Positions 5,074 to 23,267 of a stretch of 64,000 nt of DNA are shown here, one piece after another. The notes under the pieces are model-generated. The model did not search any database. It was given only the letters and a program-made list of their open reading frames with translations, and was not told where the DNA came from. Numbering within the stretch: position 1 is the stretch's first letter; every line of letters begins with the position of its first letter. A program made the position numbers and the translations under genes. Source of the DNA: a virus; the IMG/VR virus record IMGVR_UViG_3300050821_013910, positions 10,563-74,562 of that record; one strand, written 5' to 3'.

Positions 5074-6882
5074 ACGCCCCTTAATCTCCATCACGTTGAA
5101 CGCTTCTTTTCCCGGCTCAACATCCGCGACCGCGACGACGGAACTCTTCACCCATTCATTCTTCGTGAGCAGCAGCAACAGGTCTTAGAACAATTCAAGG
5201 GTCATCTTGCTCGCCGCCGCCGTCTCTTTGGCGTGTTCCTCAAAGCTAGGCGCATTGGACTATCTACTCTCGCTACCGGTCTGGGTCAAGCGCACTGCAT
5301 TGCCCATCCCGGATCACTCGCTCGCTGTATCGCGCAGAACGCTGAGGTGGCGGCGGCTAACTTTGCGATGGCCTGTAGCTTTCGTGAAGATTGTAAAGAC
5401 CTCTATTCAGGCGCTCCGAAACCAACTAAGAAGACACTAATATGGCCGCATAGTGATGGCCCCGATTCTCAATTTACTCACCATACCGCTGCTACCGTGC
5501 ATGGTCAGCGCGGACTTACTTCCTCGTTCCTCCACCTCACGGAAGCAGGGTTCTATCCCTATTCGGGCGCCTTCACGTCATTACTTAATACACTTTCAAA
5601 AGACCCCAACAACGCGGTCATCATTGAAACGACCGCGAATGGTATGGAAGGACCGGGTGAGGCTTATTATCAGTGTTGGGAGGCAGCCGTAGCCGGGGAC
5701 AATGAGTTTCTTCCCATCTTCTTACCATGGTGGGATGACCCCGCTTATAACCTCCCCGAAGAGTTCGCCCTTGATGCTCCCCGCGACGAGTACGAGAAGT
5801 ATTTGATGAATGATGTTAAGCATTGGAAAACCGGCAAGAAGGTGGAGATAACTAAGAGCCAGATAGCTTGGTTCAGGGAGACTCTCTCTGCCAAGTGTGA
5901 GGGGATCATTGAGAAATGGAGGCAAGAGTACCCGGCCACTCCAGAAGAGGCTTTTGTAGCGACGGGTAACCCCGCTTTCACCATAGAAGAAATGCAATTC
6001 GCCGAGAACTCGATCGTTAAAATCCCCTGGCAAGGCCGTTGCGTCCTGACCCTCGACCAAAAACACGGCGAACTCCAAAAGGGAACCGACGGGCCGCTGG
6101 TCCTCTACGAGACTCCCCAGAAGGGCGCTCACTATTTCGCGGGGGTGGACTCAGCCCGCGGAGAAGAATCCACCATGGCCCCCGGAGACTACGCGGCTAT
6201 GGTCTGCTTCAATGCCGAAACGGGTGACTTGGCGGCAAGATATATGTCTCGTGTGTCCCCTGAGGAACTGGCCTCCGTCGCTGCCGCACTCGGTTACTAC
6301 TTCAACGGGGCGATGCTGAACGTCGAACTCAACAACATCGGCTACGTGACCATGAAACAACTGCGCGACGTTTACTACTACCCCAACCAGTATCTCTGGA
6401 AGGGTCGCGATGACCGGGCCGACAAGTCCAAACAGGGGATGGCCTACGGATTCGAGACCAGCGACCGTTACCGCCGCATGATGTTCTCGCTATTCCGCAC
6501 GGCCATCCACAGCAAGCGGGTCGTCCCCAAGGATCGCGTGCTGGTCTCACAAATGAAGAAAGCCAAGCTGGAAATGAACTGGCGCTGGAACGTTGCCGTC
6601 GGACATGACGACGTGCTGATGGCGGCGCTACTTTCGTGGATCGCTGTCGAGCAATACCACAGTGCTCCCTGTCAGCATCGCTCTCCCAAGAACGTGCTGA
6701 TGACCAAGGATGAGTTAGAGAATGCTGGATTCTCTCCTACTCGCGGCCAGATGCCAGAGTGGACCAAGGACCCAACTGTCACCGGCATGGGAGCGCTCCT
6801 GACCACCGGCAATGACCATCTCAAGAAGCTCGAACTCTACAACAAGGCCAAGCAGAAGGTCAATCGGTTGCAATGGATCTAG
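5074..6882 (+). CDS. terL: terminase large subunit (probable ACG start; first canonical start is GTG 5233)
   Basis: LKARRIGLST Walker A, LHLTE Walker B, ETTANG coupling motif, RQEYP, AGVD, VELNN, HDD nuclease motifs; open frame extends upstream through LNIRDRDDGTLHPFILREQQ. Confidence 0.9.
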   Translation, partial: TPLNLHHVERFFSRLNIRDRDDGTLHPFILREQQQQVLEQFKGHLARRRRLFGVFLKARRIGLSTLATGLGQAHCIAHPGSLARCIAQNAEVAAANFAMACSFREDCKDLYSGAPKPTKKTLIWPHSDGPDSQFTHHTAATVHGQRGLTSSFLHLTEAGFYPYSGAFTSLLNTLSKDPNNAVIIETTANGMEGPGEAYYQCWEAAVAGDNEFLPIFLPWWDDPAYNLPEEFALDAPRDEYEKYLMNDVKHWKTGKKVEITKSQIAWFRETLSAKCEGIIEKWRQEYPATPEEAFVATGNPAFTIEEMQFAENSIVKIPWQGRCVLTLDQKHGELQKGTDGPLVLYETPQKGAHYFAGVDSARGEESTMAPGDYAAMVCFNAETGDLAARYMSRVSPEELASVAAALGYYFNGAMLNVELNNIGYVTMKQLRDVYYYPNQYLWKGRDDRADKSKQGMAYGFETSDRYRRMMFSLFRTAIHSKRVVPKDRVLVSQMKKAKLEMNWRWNVAVGHDDVLMAALLSWIAVEQYHSAPCQHRSPKNVLMTKDELENAGFSPTRGQMPEWTKDPTVTGMGALLTTGNDHLKKLELYNKAKQKVNRLQWI

Positions 6883-9187: not shown

Positions 9188-10963
9188 ATCGCCAACGTCT
9201 TCATGATCGCCAACCCCTCGCGCAAGAGCGCGAAGCAGGAGCACATCGATCCGAGGGCGAGGCATCTAGAGGACTGGATACAAGCGTCTGACTCCGCGCG
9301 CAACAAGGCATTGGGAGAGGGCTTCGCTAAGGCTGCGGAAGATTTGTATAACCTCAGCGACGCCATGACGCCGGGGCCTGTCTACAGGCCTTCCTTAAGC
9401 ATCCCCATGCTGCAAAGAATAATGCTGGAGGAGTCCAACCAAGTCAGCAGCCTGAGTCCGCGTATGTACGTCTTCCCGTCGGCGGGCTCCTCCGATCCTT
9501 CCTACAGCGGTGCCCAGCAAGCCGACCCTTCTCTCCCCTCTACTACTTCGCGTGACTTAGCGCGTGAAGTGTCCCTCCAGGCGCAGTGGCAGATCAGCAA
9601 GATGAACTTGCACCTGCTGATGGCCGGACTAACTGCCCGGTATTGTGGAGCTGGCTGGATAGTCTCGGGGTTTGATCCTGACTTGAGTCGCGCTCGCGGG
9701 GGCATGTGGGCTCGATCTATTGATCCCCGGCTGGTGTTTTTTGATCCTGGGACCGACTACACCTGGAACCCCTCCTACGCTGGCTGGCGGACTTGGATGA
9801 ACCTCGAAGACGTCCGGCTGAAATGGCCCGAGACCTCCCGCGCCGTCCAGCCCAAGCACACCTCGGGCGGGTTCCAGCCTTTCTCGGGGGACTCAGGTTA
9901 TGGTATCTCGCAGCCGCCCGGCCCGATGTCGTCGATGCCCTCGGCCTCGGGCCAGAACGCCAAGACTCAGGTAAGCGAATCGCGAGTCTTAGTAACCCAC
10001 TGCTTCTGTCGCGACTACACCCGCGTTCAGGTCGAGAAGCCGGATGTGCCGCAGACCTCGCTCATTGATCCAGAGGTCCGGCTGAAGTATCCCAATGGCA
10101 GGTGGATCGTGGAGGCAGAAGGCGTTATCCTCCAGGACGGCGACAATCCCTACCCACCGCGGCGCGATCTCATGGCCCCGACCTTTCCGCTGTTCCCGAA
10201 CTGGGTCCTCCCTCCCCTCTTCGGACCCTGGGGCATCCCCGTCACCCGCATGACCGAAAACCTCCAGCGCCTGGCCCAGCGCTTCTACACCCAGATCTTC
10301 GAGAACGGCCTCCGGATGAACAACGGGGTATGGTTCATCGATGAGAACACCGGGATCGACATCGACGGGTTCGGCGGGCTGCCTGGCGAAGTCTGCACGA
10401 TCAAGCCGGGGTCGCGCATTCCCTCGACCGTCACCCCTAACGCGATGGGAGCCGGAGCGCTGCAGGGGGCCGAGAAACTCCTTGCCCTCCAGAACGACTG
10501 CCTCGGGTTCTCAGCCAGCCGCCAGGGCGAGCCGGGCGCGGGGAACGTCTCGACCGACCTTTTCGACAGCGCTGTCCTCCAGTCCTCCGGTCTCCTCCAA
10601 CTGGCCGGCCGGTTCCTCGCCGAGACAGCCGAGTCGATCGGCAGTTTCATGTTCGACACCATGTGCAAGTACCAGCAGAAATCCACTCTAGCCTACAAGG
10701 GACCGGAAGGAATTTCCCTAGCCAGTTGGAACGGTCAGGTTGATCCGATGACTTATGACCTTGCACTGGACGATGCCAGCGTGCGCCCGCTGAGTGAGGC
10801 AGTTATCAGAAAAATCACGCCTGACCTGATGAAATCTGGAGTTGTAAGTCCCGAGCGCGGACTCCGCACCCTCGGCTATCCCGATCCCGAAGGTGTTTCT
10901 CGCGAGCAGGAAACTTCGCAGGCCCTAGCTGCACTAGCCAAAGTCAGATCAGGCAGGAAATGA
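9188..10963 (+). CDS. portal protein (P22/T7-like); probable ATC start, first ATG 9203
   Basis: About 590 aa after TerL; SIDPRLVFFDP, ILQDGDNPYP and PWGIPV segments typical of podovirus portals. Confidence 0.8.
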   Translation: MANVFMIANPSRKSAKQEHIDPRARHLEDWIQASDSARNKALGEGFAKAAEDLYNLSDAMTPGPVYRPSLSIPMLQRIMLEESNQVSSLSPRMYVFPSAGSSDPSYSGAQQADPSLPSTTSRDLAREVSLQAQWQISKMNLHLLMAGLTARYCGAGWIVSGFDPDLSRARGGMWARSIDPRLVFFDPGTDYTWNPSYAGWRTWMNLEDVRLKWPETSRAVQPKHTSGGFQPFSGDSGYGISQPPGPMSSMPSASGQNAKTQVSESRVLVTHCFCRDYTRVQVEKPDVPQTSLIDPEVRLKYPNGRWIVEAEGVILQDGDNPYPPRRDLMAPTFPLFPNWVLPPLFGPWGIPVTRMTENLQRLAQRFYTQIFENGLRMNNGVWFIDENTGIDIDGFGGLPGEVCTIKPGSRIPSTVTPNAMGAGALQGAEKLLALQNDCLGFSASRQGEPGAGNVSTDLFDSAVLQSSGLLQLAGRFLAETAESIGSFMFDTMCKYQQKSTLAYKGPEGISLASWNGQVDPMTYDLALDDASVRPLSEAVIRKITPDLMKSGVVSPERGLRTLGYPDPEGVSREQETSQALAALAKVRSGRK

Positions 10964-11283
10964 GGAAGACAGCCATGCAGACTCCCGTCGCCGACCAACC
11001 CGCCCCCTCGCGACCCCGACCACACCCACACGTTCCTGTTCGGGAGGAGACAGAGATGGAGTCGGCCTCCGCCTTGGCTTCCCCCGCCCGCTCTGTCCCT
11101 CCTCATTCGTGGAAGGGACATTGGCTATCCGCGCGAGAATTTGCCGGAGTAATGAACCGTAAGGAACAAACTATCTACAAATGGGCGCGGATTGGAACCT
11201 TGGCGGAATTCCAAATTTCTGTATGTAAGTTTCAAGGACGTAAGCCGCACACGGCTAGGTTATGGATTCTTAATCCATTCTAG
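10960..11283 (+). CDS. helix-turn-helix (excisionase/MerR-like) DNA-binding protein
   Basis: WLSAREFAGVMNRKEQTIYKWARIG. Confidence 0.65.
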   Translation: MRKTAMQTPVADQPAPSRPRPHPHVPVREETEMESASALASPARSVPPHSWKGHWLSAREFAGVMNRKEQTIYKWARIGTLAEFQISVCKFQGRKPHTARLWILNPF

Positions 11284-11303
11284 CCGTGCTTGGCATCCCT
11301 ACT

Positions 11304-11553
11304 CAACCGATCCTGAACCCAACCGATCCTGACCCGACCGGACCCAACCTGACAACTACCACTCCATGCCTCCAGCGAACCTTGTCAGACCAGAGACTGC
11401 CATAGCGGACCCGTTGGACCCCACACAACCACTCCATGCCTATGCAAGCCTGACCGGCCTTTCGGCCCGTTCCACGCCTTGTCGATCCTTGACTTGCCGT
11501 ATCCAGTCTCGCACCAACTCTCCGCGTTTGTCCTTGTACAACCACGCCAAGGC
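11304..11553 (-). ncRNA. GGY-NN pentamer array 2, candidate guide RNA(s) split by a GGCC-GAAA-GGCC hairpin
   Basis: 17 in-phase pentamers at 11553-11469, hairpin 11456-11467, then about 30 pentamers with a few 1-nt slips. Confidence 0.7.
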
Positions 11554-11556
11554 GGA

Positions 11557-12195
11557 TTATTTTAACTCGACCACGTTGAACGATGTAACTTGGAAGCGTC
11601 CAAAACTAGGACGAAAATCACCTACTCCGACGATCCTTCCTGCGTAAGCAAGTGTCTCATGCAGCATTCGATGGTCGATGTACTCCGGCAGAAGAACTTG
11701 CAAACTTACTTTGCATTTCCAACCTGCAAGCATGGCCGGACGAACGCGCGTGATTCCATTGCGTTGAATAACTACACGCCGCTGGTCGAGGTAGTCAGGT
11801 TCCTTGACTCCGAGGGAGCAGAGTTCTCCGATGGTGCAAATTCCAGCTTTGAACAAGTCCATCGCTGACTTCCTTGGTGAGCGCGGGTCCTGTCGGAACT
11901 TTGACGCACCAATAATACTCATGCGGAAGTATTCAGATGGAATCGCAAGAAGTCCCTTCACGTCGCGGTACAGATAGCTCTCGATGTTATCCGACTTCTT
12001 CGCCGCCGACCCCTTTTTGCTTGCCGCCTTCTCGGCAACGGCCTCACAACTCCAGCGATGGAAGAGGATCGACGCCGTGCCTTCAATCTCAGCCTCGATC
12101 ATGTAAGGGGACGATAGCTCGATGTCGTCCTTTGCATCGTTCGTGGTGTTACTCAGTGCTGTTGCCTTGGTTGCCATTTCTTTCTCTTGCTCCAT
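11557..12195 (-). CDS. solo Cas7/RAMP-like protein
   Basis: N-terminal strand IEAEIEGTASILFH, LAIPSEYFRMSI (cf. Cas7/Csm3 PxIPGSSxKG), C-terminal Gly-rich loop GVGDFRPSFGRF; alternative start ATG 12177. Confidence 0.75.
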   Translation of the reverse strand: MEQEKEMATKATALSNTTNDAKDDIELSSPYMIEAEIEGTASILFHRWSCEAVAEKAASKKGSAAKKSDNIESYLYRDVKGLLAIPSEYFRMSIIGASKFRQDPRSPRKSAMDLFKAGICTIGELCSLGVKEPDYLDQRRVVIQRNGITRVRPAMLAGWKCKVSLQVLLPEYIDHRMLHETLAYAGRIVGVGDFRPSFGRFQVTSFNVVELK

Positions 12196-12208
12196 TCCTT
12201 GATTCGTA

Positions 12209-12273
12209 GTGCCTTGCCCAAACTAGCCACGTCTTGTCAAAACATGCCAATCCGTACCCGGACCCGCCGAGCC
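12209..12273 (-). ncRNA. GGY-NN pentamer array 1, candidate guide RNA
   Basis: Exactly 13 x 5 nt, all starting with G: ggctc ggcgg gtccg ggtac ggatt ggcat gtttt gacaa gacgt ggcta gtttg ggcaa ggcac. Confidence 0.7.
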
Positions 12274-12274
12274 A

Positions 12275-12412
12275 TTAGAGTTTGTACTTCCGTGCGAGTT
12301 CTCGAAGCGCCAGTTCAATGACCGCCGAACGCTTGAGTCCAAGCACCCTTGAGAGTTGGATCAGGAGGTTCAATCCAACTTGCCCTAGTCGGATACTTGT
12401 AGGAGAACTCAT
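12275..12412 (-). CDS. ribbon-helix-helix (CopG-like) regulator, 45 aa, leaderless (not in ORF track)
   Basis: MSSPTSIRLGQVGLNLLIQLSRVLGLKRSAVIELALRELARKYKL. Confidence 0.75.
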   Translation of the reverse strand: MSSPTSIRLGQVGLNLLIQLSRVLGLKRSAVIELALRELARKYKL

Positions 12413-12418
12413 ACTGGA

Positions 12419-12447
12419 AATGTAGTGAATATGCGCTACAAAGTCAA
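12419..12447 (-). promoter_or_regulatory. sigma70 promoter with overlapping operator palindrome
   Basis: TTGACT-17-TACATT, ATG 6 nt downstream; TGTAG-N10-CTACA inverted repeat at 12421-12440. Confidence 0.75.
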
Positions 12448-12459
12448 GAGTTTTTTATA

Positions 12460-12507
12460 CAGTGTTATCCCACCCCTGCGCCCTTCTCCCTCCCCTCGCC
12501 GTACCAT
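12460..12507 (+). promoter_or_regulatory. candidate late promoter (TGTTAT box, TACCAT -10)
   Basis: TGTTAT starts 39 nt before the -10 hexamer, as at 8193/8232. Confidence 0.5.
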
Positions 12508-12570
12508 TGTCCTCAATCACCCCCGCCCTTCCAGCACCTCCGGTCGTGCGCGTGTGAAAGGAGAATCATC

Positions 12571-12624
12571 ATGTACGAATTCAAGGATCGTCGCAAGAAG
12601 CGGCACGAAGGCAAACGCCGGTAG
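12571..12624 (+). CDS. basic micro-peptide MYEFKDRRKKRHEGKRR
   Basis: AAGGAG SD at canonical spacing. Confidence 0.55.
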   Translation: MYEFKDRRKKRHEGKRR

Positions 12625-12694
12625 TCCGGCCTTGCCCTTCCCACCCGCCCTCTTCGTCGCCCAACCAACTTCCCCGGAAGGAGCCTGATCCCAG

Positions 12695-12823
12695 ATGGCC
12701 GGACATCCCTCGAAATCATCCGCCCGCGTCGTCAAGGACTACCTCCAGCCCAAGAAGTTCCTGCGCGACATGCGTGCCAAGGCCGCCAAGTATTCGCACT
12801 CGCGGACTCGGAAGCGGACCTAG
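12695..12823 (+). CDS. basic peptide (42 aa)
   Basis: AAGGAG SD; MAGHPSKSSARVVKDYLQPKKFLRDMRAKAAKYSHSRTRKRT. Confidence 0.6.
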   Translation: MAGHPSKSSARVVKDYLQPKKFLRDMRAKAAKYSHSRTRKRT

Positions 12824-13651: not shown

Positions 13652-14197
13652 ATGGCCACCCCTCCCAATCCCGCTCTCGCCCAGATGATGGCCCGGCAGC
13701 TGATCCAGAAGATTGCTGGCGCTGGGGGCGGTCCTCCTGCGGGCGGTCCCCCGGCCGGCCCCGGTGGCCCTCTGCCTCCTCCGCCAGGGATGATGGGCGC
13801 GGGCGGTCCCGGTGCGGGTCCCGGAGCAGGCGGTCCAGGTGGACCCGGTGGTGGTCCTCCCGGTCCCGGCTCCCCTCCGACCACTCCCGCCGGCCTCCAG
13901 TTGTCGCAGCAACTGGCCGAACTCCAGGGCGCCGACCCCGACGCCATGGTCAAGTCCCTCACCTCGATCAAGTCCGTTGCCGTCTCCCTCTACACCCGCG
14001 CCGCCTTCACCCTCCCCGGCGTCACGCGCAACCTCGCTCAGGTGGTCAAGTACCTCGACAACTCGATCCAGGAAGCGGAGAAGGCAGCCGCTGCTACCGC
14101 TGCCGCCGGACCAATCGCCAACAACGCGGCCATCCCCAATCCCAGCGGTCAGAACGGGTCGGCACCCGTGGCAGGGATGATGATCCAGCCCCAGTAG
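13652..14197 (+). CDS. Gly/Pro-rich hypothetical protein (head module)
   Basis: Low-complexity N-half, helical C-half, high GC3. Confidence 0.7.
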   Translation: MATPPNPALAQMMARQLIQKIAGAGGGPPAGGPPAGPGGPLPPPPGMMGAGGPGAGPGAGGPGGPGGGPPGPGSPPTTPAGLQLSQQLAELQGADPDAMVKSLTSIKSVAVSLYTRAAFTLPGVTRNLAQVVKYLDNSIQEAEKAAAATAAAGPIANNAAIPNPSGQNGSAPVAGMMIQPQ

Positions 14198-15488: not shown

Positions 15489-15611
15489 TCCGGTAGTTCG
15501 AGCAGCACCGCCAGTTTTCCCTTGAGGCCGTGACCCTTTCCGACCTCCTGACCTCCACCCACCAACCCGTCGGCGACCTCCCCCCGTTCGCTCGACCCAG
15601 GAGTGATTGAA

Positions 15612-16598
15612 ATGGCCAACAGCGTCGTAGGTCTCGGCCTGGCATCGCCGCCGGTTCAACTCTCGAATACAGTAAACGCCATCTCGCAGAAGTTTATCGT
15701 CCCGGTCCTCGGGGATAACGTCTTCAAGCCTTCCCCCGTGTTCTGGGCTCTCACCCGCGAGGGGAAGCGATTCGGGGCCGGGGAACTCATCTTCCCTGAG
15801 ATCTACCAGGAAGAACTCCCAGGCGGCGCCTACTACGGCGACCAGCTCCTGGACACCTCGGTCGTCGATTCGGTCCAGCCGGCCAACCAACAGTGGAAGC
15901 CCTACCGCCAGCCGGTGGTGATCCCCATCACCGACATCATCCTCAACCGCGGCGGCTCGAACAACCTGGACATCATCCGCGCCAAGTTCCAGACCGCCTC
16001 TGGGTCCTTCCTCCAGAAGCTCTCCCGCGCCCTCTGGCACACCTCCCCCCAGAATACCTCTCTCGATATCGACGATCTGAACGCCTGGGTGGTGACCACC
16101 ACCAACACGATCGCCGGGATCTCGCGCGCTTCCTCGGCCAATGCCTGGTGGCTCGCTGCAACCGCTGTCTCGGGAGGTTCCGCGGCCCTCACCTCCGCCG
16201 TCGCCGAACCCGGCTACCAGTCCGTCACCTGGGGCTACGACGAGCCCGACCTGTTCGTGATGCCCCGCGCCTCCTACGCCGCGTTCAAGGGGAACTTCGT
16301 CACCAATATCCGGTTCGGGCAGGGGATGCAGGACGACGAGGCCCTGCAGGTCGGCTTCCGCAACCACTTCCTGTTCAACAATGCGGTCACGGTCGCCGAC
16401 TACTTCGCCACCGCCAACCAGGCCCTCCTGCTGAACTCCAAGTACATCTTCCCGGTGTTCCACGAGGCCGACTACTTCAATGTCGATCCGTTCCTGAAGC
16501 CGAGCAACCAGCGCGTTCTGGTCTCGTGCATGTATTTGACATGGAACCTCTCCTGTATCTCGCCCCGCATGAACGTGGCCTTCACGTCGATCACGTAG
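15612..16598 (+). CDS. major capsid protein
   Basis: 328 aa, very strong codon bias, position after scaffold, DNVFKPSPVF...TIAGISR pattern of HK97-fold coat proteins. Confidence 0.8.
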   Translation: MANSVVGLGLASPPVQLSNTVNAISQKFIVPVLGDNVFKPSPVFWALTREGKRFGAGELIFPEIYQEELPGGAYYGDQLLDTSVVDSVQPANQQWKPYRQPVVIPITDIILNRGGSNNLDIIRAKFQTASGSFLQKLSRALWHTSPQNTSLDIDDLNAWVVTTTNTIAGISRASSANAWWLAATAVSGGSAALTSAVAEPGYQSVTWGYDEPDLFVMPRASYAAFKGNFVTNIRFGQGMQDDEALQVGFRNHFLFNNAVTVADYFATANQALLLNSKYIFPVFHEADYFNVDPFLKPSNQRVLVSCMYLTWNLSCISPRMNVAFTSIT

Positions 16599-22025: not shown

Positions 22026-22589
22026 ATGTCCGGCACCGTTTCCGCCACCACCGCCGCCCTGATCGCCGCCGCCGTCGGCGCGGTCGGCACCGGGGCCGGA
22101 GCCTACGAGGCTTACAACTCCTCGGCCGACCAAGCCGAGGCCCAACAGAAACAGCAGCAGGCCCTCCTCCAGCAACAGCGCCAGCAGGCCACCCAGGCCG
22201 ACCTGACCAAGCGGGAGGCGGTCCTCGGCGCCCAGGGTCAGGCTCAGCAGCAGACCGGGGGATCGCTCACGGACCAGGGGACGGCGGCGTTGACGGACCT
22301 TCTCGCAGGCTATCCGGGTTATCAAGCTGGGACGAGCGGCACGGGCGGCTCCGGCACCAGCACCGGCCAGGGAGTCGGCTCCAGCGGCGTTCCCGGCCAG
22401 GGCGGGGCAGGCAGCCCCGGTCCCGCGCCCGACATTGCCGCCATCCTCGCTGCTCTCCGTAACCAGGGAGGAGGCTCTCCCTTCGGCGGCCCCGGCGGCC
22501 CCTCCCCCTCCTCCCTCTCCGGCGGCAACTGGCCCTCCTCCTCCCCCACCCCCTCGACCCGTTTCGAACTCGCCAACCCTCTTCTCTGA
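22026..22589 (+). CDS. internal virion / DNA ejection protein
   Basis: Ala/Gly N-terminus, Gln-rich helix, position after nozzle. Confidence 0.55.
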   Translation: MSGTVSATTAALIAAAVGAVGTGAGAYEAYNSSADQAEAQQKQQQALLQQQRQQATQADLTKREAVLGAQGQAQQQTGGSLTDQGTAALTDLLAGYPGYQAGTSGTGGSGTSTGQGVGSSGVPGQGGAGSPGPAPDIAAILAALRNQGGGSPFGGPGGPSPSSLSGGNWPSSSPTPSTRFELANPLL

Positions 22590-22607
22590 GGAAAGGAGTC
22601 ACCCCAG

Positions 22608-23267
22608 ATGTCCGGCACCCTCTCGGCCACCACCCTCGCTTCCCTGGCTCCTTACCTCCAGGACGCTACCCAGGTCGCCCAGCTCGGCTCCACGGCCTAT
22701 AACATGTATAACCAGTACCAGAACCAGCAATACCAGAACCTCCTGCGCTCCTACGCCCAGGACCCGGCGAAAATGAACGCCTACGCCGCCAAGTTCACCC
22801 AGCCCCTGACCGCCGGGCTCCAGCGGTCGGTCGCCAACGAGACCCAGGGCTACCTCGCCTCCCGCGGGCTCTCGGACTCGCCCCAAATCTCCGAACAGGT
22901 CGAGGCCCAGGCCATCGCCCCCTACGTCCAGCAGAACCAGCAGGCCGGGTACCAGGATGCCTTGCAAGCGCTCGGACTGGGCGGCGGGGCGATCCCCCCG
23001 GCTCTGCAGCAACAGAACTCGCTCTCTGCGCTGGCCAAGGCCTTCTCGATGTGGGGCGCGGGCGGGACGGGCGGGGCAGGCAACCTAGCCCAACTCCTCA
23101 AACTCTCCCAAGCCGCTCCTACTCCCCCCACCACCCCCTACGACCTTAGCGGCGACTCTACCATCCCCTACGAGCCGACCCAGACCTGGGACTTCAGCAA
23201 CTGGCAGCCGGATTACTCGGCGTCGGCCCCAGCCTCGGCGACCGGCGACACCGGTGGAGGAGGATAA
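22608..23267 (+). CDS. internal virion / DNA ejection protein
   Basis: A/Q-rich, LASRGLSDS motif; MSGTLSATT start echoes the previous gene (MSGTVSATT). Confidence 0.55.
   Translation: MSGTLSATTLASLAPYLQDATQVAQLGSTAYNMYNQYQNQQYQNLLRSYAQDPAKMNAYAAKFTQPLTAGLQRSVANETQGYLASRGLSDSPQISEQVEAQAIAPYVQQNQQAGYQDALQALGLGGGAIPPALQQQNSLSALAKAFSMWGAGGTGGAGNLAQLLKLSQAAPTPPTTPYDLSGDSTIPYEPTQTWDFSNWQPDYSASAPASATGDTGGGG

Follow-up and report, generated by a model that had tools for sequence, protein, structure and literature searches.

The cassette and its layout

The stretch of viral DNA analyzed here, referred to below as the window, spans 64,000 nucleotides (positions 10,563 to 74,562) of the IMG/VR record IMGVR_UViG_3300050821_013910, a soil-metagenome virus record of 74,562 bp that is 97% complete; unless another record is named, coordinates count from the first letter of the window. 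Between the portal and helix-turn-helix (HTH) genes on one side and the scaffold and major-head genes on the other, this virus, hereafter the carrier, harbors a compact minus-strand cassette of 1.2 kb, in which the gene for a minimal RAMP protein is flanked on both sides by arrays of 5-nt units. By every feature open to testing here, the cassette belongs to the VIPR (Viral Interference Programmable Repeat) family; it is not a CRISPR-Cas system. Our overall reading, to which we assign a probability of roughly 0.85, is that it constitutes a VIPR system whose upstream guide targets the 3′ end of the HTH gene in sibling phages and would thereby silence the head module of these rivals.

Read 5′ to 3′ along the minus strand, the cassette begins with a putative promoter-like site, TTGACT-17-TACATT (12447-12419), found by a consensus scan only and located six bases before the start codon of an open reading frame (ORF) for a CopG-like ribbon-helix-helix (RHH) protein of 45 aa (12275..12412). 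There follow the guide part of the upstream vrRNA, termed U, with 11 pentamers (12219..12273) whose variable dinucleotides, or NN pairs, are TC GG CG AC TT AT TT AA GT TA TG, and a 3′ part of six pentamer-like units (12189..12218; GGCAA GGCAC TACGA ATCAA GGAAT GGAGC). The vipr gene (11557..12177) encodes the minimal RAMP, 206 aa in length, with an RRM core, a helical insertion, a thumb β-hairpin, and a G-loop. Downstream of it, the vrRNA D1 comprises 16 pentamers, the first ~11 of which are variable (11469..11548), and is capped by a G-GGCC-GAAA-GGCC hairpin (11456..11468). Distal arrays D2 (21 units), D3 (7 canonical GGY units), and D4 (4 units) occupy 11294..11455, all still on the minus strand, and an inverted repeat with 24-nt arms and the core CACGGCTAG...CTAGCCGTG closes the cassette at 11235..11303; it contains no T run and likely serves as the terminator of the cassette.

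The original prediction had described a self-contained unit inserted antisense in the head operon, and the order of parts that it gave is the one seen in the sequence. Two of its boundaries shift. The cassette does not stop at 11304 and extends to the terminator-like inverted repeat, and the central gene, given as 212 aa from 12195, most likely starts instead at the ATG at 12177, because nearly all of its close homologs are 206 aa long.

A Vipr homolog with the Cas7/Csm3 fold

VIPR was published in April 2026 as an RNA-guided DNA-silencing system, in which one protomer binds each pentamer, the GGY triplet serves as scaffold, and the NN dinucleotides form a non-contiguous guide (bioRxiv 10.64898/2026.04.26.720920). 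The experimental reference is the type II system of Escherichia phage SUSP1 and of a Pseudomonas fulva prophage (bioRxiv 10.64898/2026.04.26.720920,.720927, 10.64898/2026.10.15.759431; PDB 36pp). Its vrRNAs carry 9-16 YNNGG/GGY-NN pentamers, at least 4 being required for calling, and are expressed, processed to ~100 nt, and co-purified with Vipr, the resulting ribonucleoprotein (RNP) silencing transcription. A viral system of this name and architecture, which the first reading of the window had named, therefore does exist (10.64898/2026.04.26.720920), and its published scheme of one subunit per pentamer, GGY scaffold, and non-contiguous NN guide coincides with the one proposed from the letters; the novelty which that proposal implied is forfeited by the earlier publication.

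The 206-aa protein finds no match in Pfam, PADLOC, or NCBIfam, and in PHROGs it matches phrog_4652, a group of unknown function (E 1.9e-15). Its family is very large: one search returned 5815 homologs, and another gave 1115 clusters at 50% identity. A profile built from 60 family members matches PDB 36pp_D, "SUSP1 Vipr protein", at E 1.3e-16, aligning query residues 32-204 to chain residues 5-190, and the single 206-aa sequence recovers SUSP1 Vipr at E 0.001 over the thumb and G-loop half. By cryo-EM, SUSP1 Vipr contacts the GGY triplet through H17 and D177 (G1), R138 and W178 (G2), and E71 and R179 (Y3) (10.64898/2026.04.26.720927). These positions align, respectively, to H40 (…LFHRW) and D187, R146 (…RVRP…) and F188, and the E of IPSEY and R189 in the carrier protein; five of the six contacts (H17, E71, R138, D177, R179) are identical, and the sixth, W178 to F188, exchanges one aromatic residue for another. 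D187, R146, and R189 are each conserved at 90% or more across the family. The motifs originally singled out in the translation, namely the His of the first strand, IPSE..R, and GVGDFRP.FGRF, thus turn out to align to the residues with which SUSP1 Vipr reads GGY.

The predicted structure leads to the same family. In the AlphaFold2 model (pLDDT 92.7), one RRM carries a helical insertion as well as a thumb hairpin and a G-loop, in the topology β-α-β-β (thumb hairpin 129-149)-β-α-(G-loop 183-194)-β. In a Foldseek search, the top rows contain only Cas7-family/Csm3 chains, with E-values from 4e-7, and in a VIA-align comparison against 48,161 chains CRISPR RAMPs fill the first 26 rows (Z 12.4-7.7), among them Cmr4 at 12.4 and Csm3 at 11.8. 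The suspected RAMP/Cas7 hallmarks are hence borne out by the model and by both structural searches, including the Foldseek comparison with Cas7/Csm3 that had been suggested as a check. The 206-aa protein is a homolog of Vipr with the Cas7/Csm3 RAMP fold.

With the Cas7 family of class 1 CRISPR-Cas systems (Csm3, Cmr4, type VII Cas7, Csf2), the carrier protein shares the RRM/RAMP fold, the thumb, and the G-loop (Z up to 12.4) and, by homology through Vipr, would share fixed-step polymerization on a guide RNA with periodic base flipping; Vipr, however, advances in steps of 5 nt with three bases sequestered, as opposed to 6 nt with one flipped base for Cas7. Since Cas7-family proteins are the closest solved folds other than Vipr, the cassette could conceivably be a fragment of, or an accessory to, a CRISPR-Cas system, its solo Cas7 serving an array elsewhere. 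We give this idea practically no credence, because the protein's own family is Vipr, no PADLOC or NCBIfam Cas model matches this or the other cassette protein, and the 97%-complete genome contains neither a repeat-spacer array nor Cas1. In keeping with what had been noted at first, the carrier record holds no repeat array of period 25-80 and no Cas1, and, unlike in Cas7 systems, no Cas5, Cas6, large subunit, adaptation genes, or CRISPR array were identified, Cas2/3/5/6 not having been searched for one by one.

No close relative of the protein was found in the bacterial and archaeal genomes searched, and only two GenBank phages carry one. Phage DSL-LC04 (GenBank OR003939.1) encodes a 56.6%-identical Vipr homolog at 22435-23022 of its record that is annotated as a "helix-turn-helix transcriptional regulator", probably a mis-annotation. 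A 75%-identical homolog in NCBI (P0047) is filed under a Patescibacteria metagenome-assembled genome, which is probably a binned phage contig.

Pentamer arrays on both flanks of vipr

Upstream of vipr, 13 clean pentamers run from 12273 to 12209, or 17 if counted to 12189. Downstream, 16-17 pentamers extend from 11553/11548 to 11469, and past the hairpin another ~32 follow at 11455-11294, interrupted by two 1-nt phase slips. The 17-unit array first reported at 11553-11469 is therefore present, at 16-17 units, but it is more degenerate than the other two. On the minus strand, the period-5 power of G reaches its maxima for the whole window at 12191-12275 and 11276-11375, with peaks of 3.4-3.6, where the window averages 0.24 and its 99.9th percentile is 2.2, and a run of 12/13 "G.Y" pentamers, as at 12273, is found only once in the window. 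Because the peaks over all 64 kb coincide precisely with the sequences on either side of the gene, the periodicity is not a product of chance. A logo of 41 units has G at position 1 in 93% and at position 2 in 68%, and C or T at position 3 in 80%, with G never occurring there; positions 4 and 5 are flat and near uniform, much as the initial description had it, with most pentamers starting in G and the last two positions free to vary. Tandem Repeats Finder did not detect the arrays, because their NN positions are hypervariable.

The same architecture recurs with the gene. Among ten IMG/VR loci whose Vipr homologs are 50-90% identical, a period-5 G signal lies directly after the gene and on the same strand in 9-10 of 10, and often one also precedes the gene, so that the examination of homolog flanks proposed beforehand gave the expected outcome. 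The arrays at these homolog loci are plain GGY-NN, with 37 consecutive units at one of them (L004). Relative to its two closest loci, L001 and L009, the window keeps the G columns and the hairpin element GGAACGGGCCRAAAGGCCGGT unchanged, and the NN columns differ.

The last five units of D1 (GTCAA GGATC GACAA GGCGT GGAAC) are conserved in L001 and thus appear to belong to a constant tail. The units of U at 12189-12218 resemble this constant end of D1 (GGCAA GTCAA GGATC GACAA GGCGT GGAAC) and probably represent the constant 3′ tail of vrRNA U, which would reach into the ribosome-binding region of vipr. A GGAAC-G-GGCC-GAAA-GGCC hairpin follows D1, and none follows U or D2-D4; it is present in the minimum free energy fold (z -2.5), and in paralogous copies its stem is kept through paired changes (GGTCA-TTA-TGACC and GGCC-TTCA-GGCC). 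An internal motif, GGCRTGGAGTGGTWGT / GGCGTGGTTGT, is repeated at spacings of 70 and 113 nt (11355-11441 and 11412-11549) and may mark vrRNA unit boundaries or a constant 5′ handle. In the distal array, a 16-nt tandem duplication at 11301-11332 equals three pentamers plus one base, a length that accounts for one of the two 1-nt phase slips, and the duplication may illustrate how the arrays grow. An Rfam search over 10800-12800, hammerhead ribozymes included, returned no match at E up to 1, and there are therefore no hammerhead spacers.

Many units depart from GGY (GTT, GAC, TAC, AAC), D2 is weakly periodic, and phase slips and the 16-nt duplication have accrued, all of which would suit a decaying or domesticated remnant without working guides, or else a protein with a guide-independent role, for instance as an RNA chaperone or a regulator of the phage's own genes. 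We deem this very unlikely. The same relaxed G-N-Y units (GTT, GAC, GGA…) recur in L001 and L009 and are hence a feature of the clade rather than decay peculiar to the carrier; the first position retains G in 93% of units, and G is never seen at position 3; and the RNA-contacting residues of the protein are intact. The published VIPR classification, too, reports frequent internal degeneracy and variant repeat consensuses, and the carrier's own genome was found to contain no site.

The upstream guide and its predicted target

According to the published 1-nt skip, the NN pairs of a vrRNA read DNA as NN-x-NN-x. Decoded by this rule, the exact seed formed by U units 1-8 occurs at 24 IMG/VR loci, and the two that extend best, to 23/26 and 22/26, are one and the same site in two related phages, namely the end of an HTH homolog (…NGTLAEFGIPVCQYRWGGLHSGRTFILNIY*). 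The predicted site comprises the last ten codons plus the stop of the HTH gene in these phages and is the most conserved stretch of that gene. It lies in codon phase: the NN pairs fall on the first two positions of each codon and the skipped bases on the wobble position, an arrangement that has been reported for natural VIPR targets (VIPR preprints). Across 26 collected loci with the HTH gene, the best U site falls at this position in most, and U units 1-11 match 21/22 in L133, L153, and two metagenome contigs. All four metagenome matches of a relaxed U pattern, moreover, are this HTH 3′-end site. The single mismatch places a guide G opposite a T of the target strand, and several other HTH alleles deviate from U by G:T or U:G oppositions only; the tolerance of Vipr for such oppositions is not addressed in the VIPR papers.

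The match depends on the rule and on the order of the units. Over 926 kb of sibling-phage DNA, skips of 0, 2, and 3 gave 15, 15, and 16, reversed orders gave 15, and 500 shuffles of the unit order of U averaged 15.7 (sd 0.66) with a maximum of 18. In five sibling genomes, other guide windows or registers yielded no comparable in-register match; off-register, GG-rich windows scored high on Gly-rich coding sequence, and these were dismissed as targets on account of their low complexity. The carrier itself appears to be spared: its own HTH allele (…HTARLWILNPF*) matches U at just 11/22, and no self target was found in the 74.5-kb genome under skips of 0-2. In five phage records carrying Vipr homologs, U has no match at up to 3 mismatches. 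The predicted target of U, as judged from sequence, is thus the rival HTH allele in sibling phages, which gives the earlier surmise of a system directed "against competing phages" a concrete predicted target for this one guide.

It is nevertheless worth considering that the carrier harbors a genuine VIPR relative whose U-HTH match is fortuitous or a relic, the real targets being other elements such as satellites, prophages, or host genes. A match of 23/26 or 21/22 is just barely rarer than chance over all of IMG/VR, where ~1-2 chance matches of at least 23/26 are estimated; no 22/22 target was found in IMG/VR or the JGI metagenomes; and the other guides have no target in the five sibling genomes. 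We consider this explanation improbable, since the match falls in sibling phages, in the homolog of the very gene that adjoins the cassette, in codon phase, and on the most conserved stretch of that gene. It also appears under the published skip rule only, and four of four relaxed-pattern metagenome matches converge on this one site. The single mismatch of U is guide G versus target-strand T.

The D-array registers showed no in-register target in the same five sibling genomes. For D1, a wobble-tolerant 14-unit pattern gave 0 matches, and 185,579 prokaryote genomes likewise contained none for an exact pattern of 11 units, two of the D1 patterns having included units that were later judged to be constant tail. 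A mixed 11-unit pattern found one match in IMG/VR, in an unrelated phage of 32% GC, with ~1.5 matches expected by chance. An HNH gene as a candidate target of D1 is not supported: the exact 9-unit seed (units 4-12) led in IMG/VR to one sequence family, whose extension of 3/14 equals chance and whose protein context is not HNH.

Insertion site and cassette-free siblings

The phages with the predicted target share 70-75% nucleotide identity with the carrier over the portal and scaffold/head genes. Their gene order is portal, HTH, TGTTAT box, small ORFs, scaffold, and head, the box following the HTH stop without any intervening feature. None of five such records, among them a 100%-complete genome of 77.9 kb, contains vipr. 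In every relative examined, a (C)AGTGTTAT box lies 25-45 nt past the HTH stop (at about 6278-6290 in L133, and likewise in L174-L177), whereas in the carrier the TGTTAT box, CAGTGTTATCCC (12460..12482, plus strand), comes directly after the cassette. The comparison indicates that the cassette was inserted into the short spacer between gene and box. In the carrier it adjoins the 3′ end of the HTH_17/excisionase-like DNA-binding gene (10960..11283, plus strand), and, as the relatives are without it, it represents an insertion directly 3′ of the gene whose rival alleles U is predicted to address. The GC content of the cassette is 51-53%, in contrast to 61-65% in its flanks. The last codons of the carrier's own HTH gene fall inside the inverted repeat at 11235-11303, and the HTH alleles of the relatives have no such inverted repeat.

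Given this geometry, it is tempting to view the cassette as a selfish, allele-excluding insertion, whose lead guide addresses the cassette-free version of its own insertion site. We offer this idea tentatively and lean against it. If it is true, near-identical siblings would have their head module silenced by carriers in mixed infections, and an R-loop or triplex at the empty site might help the cassette to move by recombination into the genome of the rival, which would amount to a nuclease-free analogue of homing.

Proposed mechanism and relation to known systems

For the reading that we favor, a VIPR system aimed at the HTH 3′ end of sibling phages, membership in VIPR is argued by the homology, the fold, the RNA-contacting residues, the array architecture, the lack of CRISPR parts, and the match to rival alleles. 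By analogy with the published systems, we infer that the arrays are transcribed and processed, that RNPs form and silence, and that competition between phages is affected. As in SUSP1, Vipr protomers would polymerize on each vrRNA, one per pentamer, flipping out and holding the G-G/N-Y triplet and presenting the two variable bases. The resulting filament would bind double-stranded DNA, reading it as NN-x-NN-x, and block transcription there. At the U site, it would sit ~30 nt upstream of the conserved TGTTAT box lying ahead of the scaffold and capsid genes, and upon co-infection it could act as a roadblock within the co-directional head-gene module of the rival. Such a block of a co-infecting sibling's head genes is suggested by the ability of SUSP1 VIPR to silence on either strand and by its role in phage-satellite competition (VIPR preprints). 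The carrier's own HTH allele would be too diverged for binding. The RHH protein, in turn, probably sets the expression of the cassette, or assists at the DNA, independently of the late program of the phage.

A number of observations weigh against this picture. The pentamers have G at position 2 in just 68%, and many D2 units are without the initial G, so that part of the array may have decayed or may be read differently. The match of U ends at the stop codon, leaving units 12-13 unmatched, and no perfect target was found, the exact 13-unit pattern of U giving 0 in IMG/VR and the exact 11-unit pattern 0 in the JGI metagenomes. No targets were found for D1-D4, with the D1 search incomplete. Co-infection of carrier and target phages is an assumption. 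Finally, in a soil metatranscriptome from another study, a low-depth contig (~2.4) covers only the 5′ part of vipr (11968-12198) and leaves the arrays uncovered; these are assembled contigs with possible DNA carry-over, in which the uncovered part proves nothing. The same metatranscriptome contains a 455-nt contig with a word depth of ~32 over the small-ORF region at 12528-12800, which on the plus strand comes just after the cassette.

The carrier cassette shares with published VIPR a homologous minimal RAMP with the GGY-contacting residues, and arrays of GGY/NN pentamers on both sides of the gene; the conserved hairpin after the variable tract of D1 may correspond to the structured 3′ tail of the published vrRNAs. 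It is likewise phage-borne, without cas genes or a CRISPR array found, and accompanied by a small gene for a candidate DNA-binding accessory. Its predicted target obeys the 1-nt skip, with the skips on wobble positions, and lies in a mobile element that competes with the carrier, whose own allele has the lower score. In this last respect, it resembles the situation described in a preprint of October 2026, in which relatives target each other's VIPR loci and self-match scores are lower (10.64898/2026.10.15.759431). Compared to SUSP1, on the other hand, the carrier Vipr is distant (E 0.001 with the single sequence), the repeat is relaxed at position 2 (G 68%) with F in place of the G2-stacking W178, and the tail is a short GNRA-type hairpin after conserved pentamer-like units instead of the SUSP1 pseudoknot. 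The accessory is an RHH protein encoded upstream of vipr, and the cassette has been inserted antisense into the head module. The published targets are satellite recombinases, prophage regulators, and the VIPR loci of rivals, whereas the predicted target of the carrier is a core gene of vipr-less siblings at the insertion site.

Because the class of system was published in 2026, the cassette opens no new category, and the added interest resides in its predicted target, the sibling allele at the empty site. It extends VIPR to a distant and very large clade from soil and other metagenomes, whose repeat consensus is relaxed and whose tail is a simple hairpin, and the U match would confirm the 1-nt-skip code independently and by computation alone, at a large distance from SUSP1. 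The concrete natural target that it predicts is a conserved core gene of vipr-less siblings, with self-avoidance through allele divergence, and points to sibling rivalry, possibly with homing-like spread, as a use of VIPR.

The accessory gene and neighboring features

Orthologs of the 45-aa protein are encoded directly upstream of vipr in L001, L002/L003, and L009. It and its orthologs, four in all, match the Pfam families RHH_3/RHH_1, invariably below the curated cut-offs, and a profile of the four RHH orthologs matches CopG (1b01) at E 0.0026. The AlphaFold2 model (pLDDT 83.7) has two helices preceded by an extended N-terminal arm, and the top rows of a Foldseek search are all RHH proteins, albeit weak (E 0.09). 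The protein is thus akin to the CopG/Arc-type RHH repressors in its size, its predicted strand-helix-helix layout, and its profile match to CopG, and differs from them in that its Pfam matches all remain below threshold. Most simply, it would be a CopG-like DNA binder and a candidate vap-type accessory or autorepressor, and the position of the gene right after the promoter-like site suggests autoregulation. The small ORF before vipr encodes a zinc-ribbon protein in L004 (2333-2476) and an unrelated 55-aa protein in L007 (2233-2400), and because these two loci carry non-RHH ORFs at this place, the accessory gene appears to be exchangeable; elsewhere in the clade, nothing recognizable is present.

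On the plus strand, the genes that precede the cassette encode TerL (5233-6882), the portal (9203-10963), and the HTH protein (10960-11283), and the major head gene lies on its other side (15603-16598). No tyrosine integrase was found in the 74,562-bp record, and the carrier appears to be a soil phage of roughly 75 kb that does not integrate. Between the cassette and the scaffold-like gene, an ORF of 181 aa without a family match (13652-14197) contains a long Gly/Pro-rich stretch of low complexity and is kept in L041 (3226-3750).

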